Below are positions 1 to 12,495 of a DNA stretch of 12,495 nucleotides, piece after piece. Numbering within the stretch: position 1 is the stretch's first letter; each line of letters begins with the position of its first letter. The notes under the pieces are model-generated. The model was not told the origin of the DNA, made no database searches, and worked only from the letters and a program-made list of their open reading frames with translations. The DNA comes from Clostridia bacterium (GTDB taxonomy: Bacteria > Bacillota > Clostridia > Christensenellales > Aristaeellaceae), in contig JAZRWA010000089.1 in the NCBI GenBank assembly GCA_045599485.1, forward strand, positions 1 to 12,495, in the 5' to 3' direction. The position numbers and the translations under genes were made by a program.

Positions 1-1
1 T

Positions 2-766
2 GAAGATGCTCATAAGGCGGCGGGAGAAAGATTGAAGGACTATCCCGGTTTTCGACCGATTCACGGTAACTTTCATGACATAAGAGAGCTTCTGCCTGAA
101 GGCACTATGCTCGACGGCGGTCTTTTGGATCTGGGTGTTTCCTCCTATCAGATCGATACGCCCGAAAGAGGATTCTCTTATCATGAAGATGCGCCGCTGG
201 ACATGCGCATGGATCGTTCACAGGGAGTCACCGCGGCCGAATGGCTGGCGATGCAGGATGAAAAGACCATCATGAACGCACTGTATGATTACGGTGATGA
301 GAAATGGGCGGCCCGCATCGCCAAGGTGATCGTGGAAAGACGTGCAGCAAAGCCCATTCTGACCACAACGGATCTTGTCAGCTGTGTGGATGCGGCCATA
401 CCGAAGGCAGTGCGCCGTAAGGACGAAGGGCATCCGGCAAGAAGGACGTTTCAGGCGGTACGTATCGCCGTGAACGACGAGCTGGCTCCTTTGTAGCAGG
501 CGCTGAACGACTGGATGAGCATGATTCGCCCCGGCGGCAGGTTGTGTGTGATCACTTTTCATTCGATTGAAGACCGAATTGTGAAGCATGCGTTCAAGAC
601 GATGCAGAATCCCTGTATCTGTCCGCCGAAGGCTCCGATCTGCACCTGTGGGAGAAAACCAATTGCCAGGGTGATGGGCGGCGGCGCCATCAAGGCTTCT
701 GCCGAAGAATTGGAAAAGAATTCACGCGCGCACAGCGCAACGCTGCGCGTCGCCCAAAAACTGTAA
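2..766 (+). CDS. rsmH: 16S rRNA (cytosine1402-N4)-methyltransferase RsmH/MraW, 5'-truncated at the window edge; one reading frame with an in-frame TAG at 494-496
   Basis: ORFs 32-496 and 515-766 share a frame (both 2 mod 3) and the frame is open from position 2. Upstream of the TAG: LLDLGVSSYQID, ERGFSY, PLDMRMD, FQAVRIAVNDEL. Downstream: RPGGRLCVITFHSIEDRIVK and the Cys-rich CICPPKAPICTCG tail. All are typical RsmH motifs. Ends in TAA at 764-766. Confidence 0.88.
494..496 (+). other. In-frame TAG inside rsmH (candidate sense codon)
   Basis: GAG CTG GCT CCT TTG TAG CAG GCG CTG; the same frame carries conserved RsmH sequence on both sides. Confidence 0.8.
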
Positions 767-776
767 GGAGAAACGA

Positions 777-1631
777 ATGCTGTACGTTGTGGCGACACCA
801 ATCGGCAACCTTGGGGATATGACTCCTCGGGCTGTGGAAACACTGAAAAGTGTATCGCTGATTGCTGCCGAGGATACACGGGTGACCATGAAGCTGCTGC
901 AGCATTTTGGCATCAGCACTCCGATGACCAGCTGCCATCGGCACAATGAAGAGGACAAAGCCCTGGAAATTGTGCGAAGGATGCAAGAAGAGAATATCGA
1001 TGTAGCCATCGTTACGGATGCCGGTACGCCGGCGATTTCCGATCCCGGCACGCACCTGGTGCATCTGGCCGCCGAAGCGGGCATAACGGTAGTTGCTGTA
1101 CCGGGACCGACGGCTATGGCCTCTGCCGTATCGGTCTCTGGTATGGACATGACAGAGTTTACCTTTATGGGTTTTTTACCCCGTGAAAAGAAAGACCTGA
1201 AGGAAGCTCTGATTTCTGCTGCTCAAAGAACGCAGGCCATTGTGGTGCATGAATCTCCTTACCGGATCATCGATTTTATGAAGGTACTGGCAGCAACATT
1301 GCCCGAAAGCATGGTAAGTGCCAGCTGTGACCTGACGAAGCTGCACGAGTTGACTCTGCGCGGCACAGCCGAGGAAGTGCTTGCCCGCATGGAAGCCAAT
1401 GACAAAACCGAAAAGGGTGAGTATTGCCTGGTTATTGACCTGAGAAAGGTGCCTAAGGCAGAACCCGCCAAAGCGGCGGTGTCCCTGGAGGCGGCATTGC
1501 TTGAAAAGGTATTGGCAGGCCAGACTCTGCGGGACGCGGTCAGCGAGACCGTTAAAGAGGGCAACCGGAAAAATGCTGTTTATGCAGCCTCCCTGAAGAT
1601 CAAGGAAATGATCAAAGAGGAATACCTATAA
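777..1631 (+). CDS. rsmI: 16S rRNA (cytidine1402-2'-O)-methyltransferase RsmI
   Basis: The N-terminus MLYVVATPIGNLGDMTPRAVETLKSVSLIAAEDTR is the tetrapyrrole-methylase-fold RsmI signature, followed by DAGTPAISDPG. An AAGGAG RBS lies 6 nt upstream. 284 aa, TAA stop. Confidence 0.9.
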   Translation: MLYVVATPIGNLGDMTPRAVETLKSVSLIAAEDTRVTMKLLQHFGISTPMTSCHRHNEEDKALEIVRRMQEENIDVAIVTDAGTPAISDPGTHLVHLAAEAGITVVAVPGPTAMASAVSVSGMDMTEFTFMGFLPREKKDLKEALISAAQRTQAIVVHESPYRIIDFMKVLAATLPESMVSASCDLTKLHELTLRGTAEEVLARMEANDKTEKGEYCLVIDLRKVPKAEPAKAAVSLEAALLEKVLAGQTLRDAVSETVKEGNRKNAVYAASLKIKEMIKEEYL

Positions 1632-1677
1632 AGCAATAGGGACAGACAGGATTTGAAAAAGGACCGAGGTATCAAGC

Positions 1678-2451
1678 ATGATCTTCACCATGGATATTGG
1701 CAACACCAACGTGAAAGCGGGATTGTTCAATGGGACCGATTTGGTGCGTTATTGGCGGTTTTCAACGAACCGAACCTCCAGCAGCGACGAGTACGGTATT
1801 ATTGTGACCAATCTGTTTCAGAATGCCGGTCTGAGCACCAATCAGGTGTCCGGTATCATGATTTCCAGTGTGGTGCCGTCCATCAACTTTACGATTGAAC
1901 ATATGTGCAACGACTACTTTGGCATTCAGCCGAAGTTTGTTGCCCCCGGCATCAAAACGGGTATCAACATTCAATACGATAACCCGCGGGAACTGGGAAG
2001 CGACCGAATCTGCAACGCCGTGGCGGCACAGACGTATTACGGCGCCCCCTGCATTTTTATCGATTTCGGTACTGCGACGACCTTTGGTGTGGTGGATGAA
2101 AAGGAGCGCTTTATCGGCGGTTGCATCTGTCCCGGTATCAAGATCGCCAGTGAGGCACTTGTGCGCGGAACATCGAAGCTTCCCAACTTTGAACTGACAA
2201 AGCCGGAGACCGTGATTGGACGCAACACCATCACCAATCTGCAAAGCGGCATGATTTATGGCTTTGTCGGACAGGTGGAATACCTGATTCGGAAGATGAA
2301 GAAGGAAATGAACCGGGAAGATGCCCGGGTGATTGCTACCGGCGGTATGGCCCGAATGATCGCCTCTGAAACGGATTGCATCGACCAGATCGATGGCCTT
2401 CTGACCCTCAAGGGACTGAGACTGATTTACGAAAGAAACGCGGAAGCATAA
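1678..2451 (+). CDS. coaX: Type III pantothenate kinase (CoaX)
   Basis: MDIGNTNVKAGLF N-terminal phosphate-binding motif, GSDRICNAVAA, IDFGTATTF and ATGG motifs. 257 aa, TAA stop. The start could instead be ATG 1690. Confidence 0.88.
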   Translation: MIFTMDIGNTNVKAGLFNGTDLVRYWRFSTNRTSSSDEYGIIVTNLFQNAGLSTNQVSGIMISSVVPSINFTIEHMCNDYFGIQPKFVAPGIKTGINIQYDNPRELGSDRICNAVAAQTYYGAPCIFIDFGTATTFGVVDEKERFIGGCICPGIKIASEALVRGTSKLPNFELTKPETVIGRNTITNLQSGMIYGFVGQVEYLIRKMKKEMNREDARVIATGGMARMIASETDCIDQIDGLLTLKGLRLIYERNAEA

Positions 2452-2552
2452 AAATAACAGCCGATTTGCTGTACCATATCATGCAAAGCGGCGGGTTCAA
2501 ACTGCATCAGTTCTACGTATATTCTTGCATACGATGGCCGGAAAAGGGAAAA

Positions 2553-11312: not shown

Positions 11313-11324
11313 GCAGATGAATCC

Positions 11325-12077
11325 TTATTCGCCCGGGAACATTTGGGCGAGACCTTTCTGAATACCGGTATCCCAGAACCACCAGTCATGGACGCCGTCC
11401 CACTCCTCGTAGCTGCAGGGAATGTTTTTGGTATGGAAAAAATCATGGAGCTTGCGGGACATGCGGAGCAATCCGTCCTCGGTACCGCAGGCCATATAGA
11501 GCTTTGGCAGCTTCTTTCCTCCCGCAAGGGCTTTTTCGGTGAGCTTTTCGATGTCGTTTTCTTCACCGAAGGGCAGTTCGGGACCGAGAATGGCCCTCCA
11601 TTCATCCTGCTATGAACCTGCGACATCGTCGCGCCAAAGGCTGCGATCCATGGGATAGAAGCAGGAAGAGAGAGCGATGCATCCGGCATATTTATCCGGG
11701 GCTGTGGCGACACATTTCATGGCACCATAACCGCCCATGGAAAGACCGCCGATATACAGGTGCTCGGGATCGGTCGGAATGCGGAATTCCGCGGCCATCT
11801 TGGCGGGAAGCTCTTCAAAAACATAAGTGAAGTATTTAAGACCGTAGGCCATATCGATGTACCAGGAACGCTGCACCTACGGCATGACGACAGCAAGACG
11901 ATATTTATCAGTCAGACGACCGATGGCAGTACGGCGGACCCAGGCATCGCAGTTATCACTGAGACCATGCAGCAAAAGAAGGGTACGCTCAGGTGCGGCA
12001 TGGTCGGGAAGAAGAACATTGACGTGTGTATACATGGACAGACTGTCTGCCCGAATGGTTCCGTGATAAAAAGACAT
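11325..12077 (-). CDS. Esterase-family alpha/beta hydrolase (esterase D / tributyrin esterase-like); two in-frame TAGs at 11877-11879 and 11610-11612
   Basis: Three contiguous same-frame segments. Segment 1: MSFYHG...LLLLHGLSDN...AVVMP. Segment 2: VQRSWYIDM...GGLSMGGYGA, containing the GxSxG nucleophile. Segment 3 is my manual translation: QDEWRAILGPELPFGEENDIEKLTEKALAGGKKLPKLYMACGTEDGLLRMSRKLHDFFHTKNIPCSYEEWDGVHDWWFWDTGIQKGLAQMFPGE, carrying the candidate catalytic Asp and His. A GAGGTG RBS precedes ATG 12077. TAA stop at 11325-11327. Confidence 0.8.
11610..11612 (-). other. Second in-frame TAG inside the esterase gene (candidate sense codon)
   Basis: Minus strand GGT TCA TAG CAG GAT; the candidate catalytic Asp and His segments lie downstream in the same frame. 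Confidence 0.8.
11877..11879 (-). other. In-frame TAG inside the esterase gene (candidate sense codon)
   Basis: Minus strand ATG CCG TAG GTG CAG; it lies within the conserved VVMP-x-xxRSWYxDM block. Confidence 0.8.
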
Positions 12078-12129
12078 GGTATTCACCTCTGCCTGACAAT
12101 TTGATGATCGATCCTGTCCGGCTCCTCTA

Positions 12130-12158
12130 ATTGTAGAGAAACAAGGGGAGAATGTCAA
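12130..12158 (-). promoter_or_regulatory. Candidate sigma-A promoter for the esterase-tsaE-tsaB-rimI operon
   Basis: On the minus strand: TTGACA (12158-12153), a 17-nt spacer, then TACAAT (12135-12130), with A/T-rich sequence upstream. It lies about 50 nt upstream of ATG 12077. Confidence 0.6.
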
Positions 12159-12198
12159 TCAAAAATTGCTTTGGGTGAATACCATGCCGTGGGTAAGA

Positions 12199-12495
12199 TC
12201 AGGTTGAAATGTGAATGCGGCTTTGACGGTCGCGGGAGGGGAGAAGGATGATCTCTCCGTTCGAAAGGGTTTGCGGTATATCGATGAGCCGTTGATTGGA
12301 GGAGCCGCGGAACCAAAGGGAAGGATCCTTCAGGGCTTCGACATAACGACCATCTACCAAAACATTCAGCAGGGATAAAAGCGCGTCCGTGACCTCGGTG
12401 CGGGCGTGATGGCCTTCCGTGTGGAGCTGTTCCCATGTAAAGCCCGTATAGCACCAGACATCCTTCTGCGGGAAAGCGGCGCGTACTTTTTGCAC
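12199..12495 (-). CDS. nrdG: Anaerobic ribonucleoside-triphosphate reductase activating protein NrdG, C-terminal part (5' end outside the window)
   Basis: DVWCYTGFTWEQL, LLNVLVDGRYV and FRGSSNQRLID match the NrdG C-terminal region. TGA stop at 12199-12201. The leading M in the ORF track is an artefact of the window edge. Confidence 0.78.
   Translation of the reverse strand: MQKVRAAFPQKDVWCYTGFTWEQLHTEGHHARTEVTDALLSLLNVLVDGRYVEALKDPSLWFRGSSNQRLIDIPQTLSNGEIILLPSRDRQSRIHIST

Follow-up and report, generated by a model that had tools for sequence, protein, structure and literature searches.

Probable reassignment of the stop codon UAG to glutamate in a lineage of Clostridia

Do the TAG codons found in frame in the housekeeping genes of a bacterium end translation, or are they translated, and into which amino acid? 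This question was raised by a 12,495-base stretch of DNA (contig JAZRWA010000089.1 of the Clostridia bacterium assembly GCA_045599485.1; hereafter, the window), which comes from a Clostridia lineage close to Christensenellales, with affinity to metagenome-assembled genomes (MAGs) of the 'Candidatus Limiplasma' type. Gene models were obtained by reading the window with TAG as a sense codon. This gave 16 genes, each in one frame that is free of frameshifts and of internal TAA and TGA codons; six of these genes contained a total of eight in-frame TAGs. All genes that could be identified have cellular housekeeping functions; they form operons and are syntenic with the chromosomes of Clostridia MAGs. 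We are highly confident that this lineage translates TAG, and we consider it quite likely that UAG has been reassigned to glutamate (Glu) across the lineage, in this bacterium and its close relatives.

The eight in-frame TAGs were located as follows, with gene families assigned by Pfam and NCBIfam matches. The plus-strand gene rsmH (16S ribosomal RNA (rRNA) m4C1402 methyltransferase, 2..766, 5'-truncated at the contig end) has one TAG at codon 165 in window numbering (494..496). It lies inside the match to PF01795 (residues 3-253), and alignments to RsmH proteins in the PDB extend across it. The remaining TAGs are on the minus strand. The gene for an RsmF-like rRNA m5C methyltransferase (rsmF, 3464..4801) has a TAG at codon 270 (3992..3994), with PF17125 and PF01189 before it and two more C-terminal domains, PF17126 and PF13636, after it. 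In the Ppx/GppA-family phosphatase gene (ppx, 8431..9321), the TAG at codon 274 (8500..8502) is spanned by PF02541 (residues 30-292). The esterase gene (11325..12077) carries TAGs at codons 67 (11877..11879) and 156 (11610..11612), both crossed by the PF00756 match (residues 16-243).

The divIC/ftsB-like gene for a septum formation initiator (divIC, 9318..9671) also contains two TAGs. The first, at codon 49 (9525..9527), is crossed by the PF04977 match, and the second, at codon 98 (9378..9380), falls within the conserved motif NPEALYG. From this second TAG the frame runs to a TGA stop that overlaps the ppx ATG as ATGA, which is read directly in the sequence. The diadenylate cyclase gene cdaA (6301..7140; PF19293 and PF02457) has its TAG near the 3' end, at codon 273 (6322..6324). 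In alignments, the next six codons pair with the C-terminal tails of relatives, which reach the same end. Of note, cdaA overlaps the start of cdaR (ATG at 6317-6315) by 17 nucleotides (nt), and its TAG lies 4 nt upstream of this ATG. Relatives have a similar cdaA/cdaR overlap, with an ordinary sense codon at the position of the cdaA TAG.

A sequence-only reading of the window had proposed that TAG is sense here. All eight of its in-frame TAGs were recovered at their coordinates, and its statement that the frame runs on into conserved family sequence was borne out by Pfam domains across or after the TAGs and by alignments to relatives that continue past them. The ATGA overlap at the end of divIC was likewise seen, and no gene with an in-frame TAA or TGA, or in need of a frameshift, was found. 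Its count of gene ends (eight TAA, eight TGA and no TAG among the 16 genes) also held, once the last open reading frame (ORF) had been re-framed as the 3' end of nrdG. At the right end of the window, the longest ORF (12155-12493, minus strand) was rejected as being in the wrong frame; comparison with the related contig L089 placed the nrdG 3' end at 12199-12495.

Within the window, TAG makes up eight of the 241 Glu-type codons (~3%), with GAA and GAG used 162 and 71 times, respectively. No downstream context common to the eight TAG sites was found, which speaks against a local signal resembling a selenocysteine (SECIS) or pyrrolysine (PYLIS) insertion element.

Contigs of close relatives were reached by protein searches with the esterase and Ppx, whose fragments were 84-92% identical. 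These contigs were L081-L084 (Logan SRR17543910 and ERR6929691; ENA ERZ27247129 and ERZ27247134), L089 (Logan SRR27361835, 14.2 kb), L116 (ENA ERZ27247129, 7.25 kb), L117 (Logan SRR21150928) and L118 (Logan SRR17543910). L089 is collinear with the whole window except for one segment of 985 base pairs (bp). The relatives' contigs share 87-89% nucleotide identity with the window and 92-100% among themselves, and therefore at least two species-level groups are represented. The TAG trait is common to both groups and occurs in at least six samples including that of the window, with independent short-read assemblies from at least five others.

Five to six of the window's sites have TAG in the relatives as well. 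Both groups have TAG at rsmF270, cdaA273, ppx274, divIC98 and est67 (esterase codon 67). Codon 98 of divIC is TAG in every lineage member that covers the site; ppx274 is TAG in L089, L116, L117 and L118, rsmF270 and cdaA273 are TAG in L089 and L116, and est67 is TAG in L089 and L081-L084. The sharing of these five to six sites indicates that the recoding is older than the split between the two groups. Six further TAG sites were found in the relatives (rsmF289, cdaA108, ppx72, rimI37, tsaB141 and nrdG37), which brings the number of distinct in-frame stop sites in the lineage to 14, all of them TAG.

Nine sites alternate within the lineage, with TAG opposite GAG or GAA at six of them, CAG at two and GTG at one. 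At rsmH165 the window has TAG and L089 has GAA. At est156 the window TAG is replaced by GAA in L089 and by GAG in L081-L084, and the protein of a 92%-identical relative (P0001) has Glu. The opposite pattern was observed at rsmF289 (3935..3937, minus strand), which is GAG in the window and TAG in L089 and L116, and at cdaA108 (6817..6819, minus strand), which is GAA in the window and TAG in the same two relatives. Codon 37 of rimI (10083-10085, minus strand) is GAG in the window, L116, L117 and L081, and TAG in L089, whereas tsaB141 (10459-10461, minus strand) is GAG in the window and TAG in L089, L116 and L081. The two sites that pair TAG with CAG are divIC49 (TAG in the window and L089, CAG in L116-L118) and nrdG37, which lies outside the window (TAG in L089, CAG in L082). 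At ppx72 (9106..9108, minus strand) the window has GTG, coding for Val, and L089 and L116-L118 have TAG. Three of the TAG/GAA pairs require two base changes and are most simply linked through GAG.

A lone MAG contig cannot by itself exclude that its TAGs are untranslated, either as nonsense mutations in decaying genes or as errors of sequencing, assembly or consensus, and some public assemblies are indeed error-rich, such as the unrelated long-read contig L119 described below. However, the same TAGs were found again in at least five other samples whose short reads had been assembled independently, which excludes sequencing and consensus error. Coding constraint was then measured as the divergence between the window and L089, with segments split at the first TAG of each gene. 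The divergence at the first, second and third codon positions was 0.057/0.043/0.305 downstream of the first TAG (1,127 codons) and 0.060/0.038/0.294 upstream of it (901 codons). Downstream divergence thus resembles upstream divergence and is dominated by third positions, which means that the same purifying selection acts in the same frame on both sides of the TAG. This constraint excludes pseudogenes and truncated products. The sequence-only reading had also argued that decay would bring indels, and no frame was disrupted by an indel in the comparison of the window with L089.

The identity of the in-frame stops points in the same direction. If the three stop codons were hit equally, the probability that 13 sites would all be TAG is (1/3)^13 = 6e-7; letting G-to-T hits on Glu codons follow the observed GAA:GAG usage lowers this value to 2e-7. 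The earlier argument that random nonsense mutation is unlikely because the in-frame stops are only TAG was thereby extended from the window to the lineage. Taken with the absence of disruptive indels and the equal constraint on either side of the TAGs, these numbers leave decay or artefact effectively refuted.

In contrast to the in-frame codons, the absence of TAG at gene ends does not reach significance by itself. All true stops were TAA or TGA in the 14 aligned genes, the hypothetical gene confined to the window, and the L089 genes nrdG, nrdD and valS. Among the ends of orthologues in relatives (80 genomes), 35 of 330 (~11%) are TAG, and at this rate none of 16 stops would be TAG with a probability of ~0.16. 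The missing TAG stops, which had been considered as independent evidence, were dropped because they are not significant against this background. The case against randomness is made by the in-frame TAGs and not by the absence of TAG stops.

To collect standard-code outgroups, GTDB species were scanned with CdaA, one genome for each, which yielded 80 loci with 60-73% identity. They are titled as Clostridia, Clostridiales, 'Candidatus Limiplasma' or Christensenellaceae MAGs and come from gut and rumen samples. By synteny and identity, the closest are L006, L007, L037 and L029 (ValS 80-83% and RsmH 74-78% identical). No in-frame stops were found in cdaA, cdaR, rsmF or the adjacent membrane-protein gene of any of the 80 loci. 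Apparent in-frame rsmF stops in L032 and L080 proved to lie upstream of the start codon and were rejected as recoding. In close outgroups TAG is a real stop, as at the ends of rsmF in L029, of rsmF and cdaR in L001 and of radC in L006. Beyond the lineage, the nearest homologues of the esterase and Ppx, with 64% and 50% identity, respectively, are full-length proteins, and those of the esterase have Glu at est67. The recoding therefore appears, from these sequence comparisons, to be confined to one genus-level branch. The proposal that TAG is sense in a cellular bacterium is thus backed by the TAGs of relatives, the alternation with GAG and GAA, the downstream constraint and the standard-code outgroups.

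As a side observation, an NrdD homology search returned matches of 87-90% identity from other taxa, in many different truncated lengths (313-532 amino acids (aa)). The single contig inspected among them, L119 (ENA ERZ28761745 contig_7518), has a different gene order and fragmented genes, including ribosomal-protein genes, and is unrelated to the lineage; a long-read assembly rich in indels would account for this better than recoding.

Which amino acid, then, would TAG specify? The outgroup residues aligned with the TAG sites were examined. At est67, within the motif MPEVQRSWY, Glu occupies the column in 115 of 119 outgroup sequences and glutamine (Gln) in none of them. The rsmF289 column is Glu in all 72 sequences, with no Gln (0/72). 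Glu also prevails at cdaA108 (48/80) and at divIC98 within NPEALYG (33/56, with Asp in 10/56), and it is the commonest residue at ppx274 (31/117), where Gln is second. At rsmH165, all four close relatives have Glu (4/4); among PDB structures of RsmH, this residue is Glu in E. coli and Lys in Thermus and Thermotoga. A simple Codetta-style score was calculated as log10 odds against background over the outgroup columns. Over 11 columns it was +4.98 for Glu and -3.22 for both Gln and Ser. With only the eight sites of the window, Glu scored +2.54 and the runner-up residue -1.30. Glutamate is therefore the best-supported meaning of TAG on the aligned columns.

Gln would be decoded by a tRNA-Gln(CUA) derived from tRNA-Gln(CUG), as in recoded gut phages and many ciliates. 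CAG and TAG differ by a single transition and alternate at divIC49 and nrdG37, tRNA-Gln(CTG) is present in relatives, and Gln ranks second at ppx274 and is common at ppx72. However, six of the nine alternations are with GAG or GAA, the near-invariant Glu columns est67 and rsmF289 contain no Gln, and the column score of Gln is about eight orders of magnitude below that of Glu. We regard Gln as very improbable. If TAG is Glu, divIC49 and nrdG37 are variable positions at which Glu and Gln replace each other in the ordinary way.

Pyrrolysine (Pyl), or another non-canonical residue, has to be weighed as well, since Pyl is the only natural UAG decoding known for prokaryotic cells. A genome-wide UAG-to-Pyl code is reported for some archaea (Kivenson et al. 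2025, as cited in the literature searched). In the present lineage, however, TAG swaps with Glu codons and stands at the invariant Glu of MPEVQRSWY, at that of NPEALYG and at RsmF residue 289, positions that would hardly accommodate a bulky lysine derivative. Moreover, the window contains no methylamine methyltransferase gene, and neither pylT nor pylSBCD lies in it. We give this reading even less credence than Gln and retain Glu.

Reassignment to Glu would operate through a tRNA with the anticodon CUA that decodes UAG. Its most economical origin would be tRNA-Glu(CUC), by one base change at anticodon position 36 (CTC to CTA). GAG would still be readable by tRNA-Glu(UUC), since decoding of GAG by this tRNA is established wobble. 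In many Firmicutes, glutamyl-tRNA synthetase (GluRS) is non-discriminating and accepts C36 as well as G36. If the GluRS of this lineage is non-discriminating too, general knowledge suggests that the A36 variant might still receive Glu. With the identity elements and body of tRNA-Glu, a tRNA(CUA) would receive Glu from GluRS, and the Gln amidotransferase would not act on it. Release factor 1 (RF1) is predicted to be lost or disabled because it is the only factor that reads UAG; release factor 2 (RF2) would then read TAA and TGA. The change would have been made easier by the rarity of TAG stops in the order (~11% of orthologues end this way), and the scarcity of both in-frame TAGs (8/241) and TAG stops fits a route resembling codon capture.

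Searches for the components of this mechanism were made in the window and beyond it. Rfam models matched no RNA in the window or in L089, and prfA was not found in any of the loci retrieved, which for the lineage itself amount to contigs of 12-14 kb. Neither the JGI metagenomes nor IMG/VR yielded a Glu-type tRNA(CUA) of the lineage when searched with the pattern CCCTCTAAMGG...GGTTCGAATCC. The pattern matched 26 loci in the JGI metagenomes, five of them with a tRNA-CUA, and nine loci in IMG/VR, two with a tRNA-CUA; all were unrelated to the lineage. In standard-code relatives, adjacent genes for tRNA-Gln(CTG) and tRNA-Glu(CTC) were found in L006 (18066-18218), L017 (8077-8230) and L019 (5888-6041), and the neighbourhood of this pair was not conserved between L006 and L017.

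One of the loci, L098 (JGI contig Ga0209843_1002951), carries at 1425-1498 a tRNA with the anticodon CTA and an acceptor stem, GCCTCCG, like that of Clostridia tRNA-Glu(CUC). It adjoins a tRNA-Gly on a contig of 62% guanine plus cytosine (G+C) with an integrase gene at its end and no convincing in-frame TAGs. This tRNA, unrelated to the lineage, may be a suppressor of Glu type from a mobile element or phage.

Several observations weigh against the reassignment as formulated here. The columns at rsmF270 (variable, mostly Gly), ppx72 (variable, with Pro, Gln and Glu), cdaA273, est156 and divIC49 (all three variable) do not have Glu as the main residue, and the two alternations with CAG pair TAG with a Gln codon. 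No tRNA(CUA) was seen, as neither the window nor L089 contains any tRNA gene. The absence of TAG from 17 gene ends has a chance probability of ~0.15 and is statistically not decisive. Finally, the claim for the whole genome is drawn from ~12-14 kb per genome and from DNA sequence alone.

The stop-codon statistics bear on a further possibility, an ambiguous code in which RF1 is kept and an efficient natural amber-suppressor tRNA inserts Glu, so that TAG is both stop and sense through competition between the two. At the 11% rate of the relatives, 17 genes without a TAG stop would be expected ~15% of the time. TAG also accounts for only ~3% of Glu-type codons, as in an early or incomplete reassignment. 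On the other hand, TAG occurs, sometimes twice per gene, in essential or near-essential genes (divIC, cdaA, tsaB and rsmH), and the TAGs have been kept across 13% nucleotide divergence. Competition by RF1 would lower the yield of many proteins together, and TAG ends no gene in either species group. An ambiguous code is, in our view, unlikely. We favor with moderate confidence the full form of the reassignment, in which UAG would be Glu throughout the genome, read by a tRNA(CUA) derived from tRNA-Glu, with RF1 lost and termination at UAA and UGA by RF2 only.

The other genes of the window are free of TAG. On the plus strand, rsmH is followed by an rsmI-like methyltransferase gene (777..1631; PF00590), which ends in TAA both here and in L089, by coaX for type III pantothenate kinase (1678..2451; PF03309; TAA) and by a gene for a hypothetical protein of 257 aa without a Pfam or NCBIfam match (2481..3254; TAA). 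The latter lies in a segment of ~985 bp (2462-3445) that is missing from L089 and L116, which are otherwise collinear. The two species groups therefore differ here by an insertion or a deletion.

The minus-strand genes include one for a hypothetical small membrane protein (4798..5274; no family match; TGA), which adjoins cdaR in 72 relatives, and cdaR itself, for the YbbR-domain regulator of CdaA (5277..6317; PF07949; TAA). A PrsA/SurA-like lipoprotein is encoded at 7295..8371 (weak Pfam matches to SurA_N and Rotamase_2; TGA). Between divIC and the esterase gene are rimI (9699..10193; TIGR01575), tsaB (10186..10881; TIGR03725), both TAG-free in the window copy, and tsaE (10878..11312; PF02367; TGA). 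The last gene is the 3' end of nrdG, for the anaerobic ribonucleotide reductase activase (12199..12495; TIGR02491; TGA); in relatives, nrdD-nrdG lie upstream of the esterase gene. The G+C content of the region is 44-57%. The organism looks like a free-living, uncultured Clostridia of gut or rumen type, and not like one with a low-GC reduced genome.

UAG has so far been known as a sense codon only in phages (as Gln), in organisms that use Pyl and in eukaryotes. If the present assignment is true, amber would here be translated as a canonical amino acid for the first time in a prokaryotic cell. Such a code would add an entry to the genetic-code tables and would mean that RF1-dependent termination can be abandoned in nature. 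It could also insulate the lineage from standard-code phages and horizontal gene transfer, and would provide a natural tRNA/synthetase route from amber to Glu for use in synthetic biology.

There are practical consequences for public databases. Under translation table 11, Ppx is called as 273 aa, the esterase as pieces of 88 and 175 aa and RsmF as 259 aa. Truncated or split entries of the lineage's Ppx, esterase, DivIC and RsmF (P0121, P0241, P0001, P0122, P0123 and P0392) were encountered in this form. Such calls distort the annotation of these MAGs as well as estimates of their completeness and quality. According to the authors of gTranslate, a change of the UAG-to-Pyl type hardly lowers coding density, and current heuristics for code prediction would therefore miss it.

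How does this code compare with those already on record? As the sequence-only reading had stated, the bacterial alternative codes change TGA, and the literature searched agrees. The bacterial stop reassignments on record concern only UGA, which became Trp or Gly (tables 4 and 25, plus recent additions), in Mycoplasmatales, several endosymbionts, Absconditabacteria/Gracilibacteria and, recently, some Eggerthellaceae. The large screens with Codetta, KACI and gTranslate list no bacterial UAG reassignment. No report of UAG as Glu in bacteria, Bacillota or Christensenellales was found in the literature searched, which excluded subscription-only papers. The earlier claim of a new genetic-code variant stands to the extent that no prior bacterial report was found, with subscription-only literature lying outside the search. 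As a stop-to-sense change, UAG to Glu is a new combination of codon and amino acid for prokaryotic cells.

The bacterial UGA codes resemble the present case in that a stop codon became sense across a cellular lineage and reveals itself by interrupting conserved genes in frame. A tRNA with a mutated anticodon and loss of the codon-specific release factor are expected in both. They differ in the codon (UGA instead of UAG), in the amino acid (Trp or Gly instead of Glu) and in the release factor, since RF2 is dispensable there and RF1 is expected to be dispensable here. The present region, in addition, belongs to free-living-looking Clostridia with 44-57% G+C and not to a low-GC reduced genome.

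Gut phages with code 15 (crAss-like and Lak phages) likewise have in-frame TAGs in genomes associated with gut or rumen and read them by a suppressor tRNA. However, these phage genomes switch code within standard-code hosts and use TAG as Gln, whereas here TAG lies in chromosomal housekeeping genes and aligns with Glu. Pyl decoding shares with the present lineage the use of UAG as sense in a prokaryotic cell, and in both cases table 11 coding density is only mildly affected, so that the change is easily missed. The difference is that Pyl is a specialised residue in archaea, whereas in this bacterium TAG aligns with Glu and alternates with Glu codons. In synthetic recoded E. coli, the TAG stops were replaced, RF1 was deleted and TAG was reassigned, which is the end state predicted here. 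That strain was engineered, whereas the present lineage, with its predicted loss of RF1, would be a natural counterpart.

A match in codon meaning comes from eukaryotes. NCBI tables 30 and 31 are the UAR-to-Glu nuclear codes of two eukaryotic groups, peritrich ciliates and Blastocrithidia (PMC12153298), and alter UAA together with UAG. As proposed for the present lineage, amber is read there as Glu, presumably by a tRNA-Glu with an anticodon complementary to the stop codon. In these eukaryotes UAA has thus been reassigned along with UAG, whereas in the window TAA ends eight of the 16 genes and never occurs in frame.

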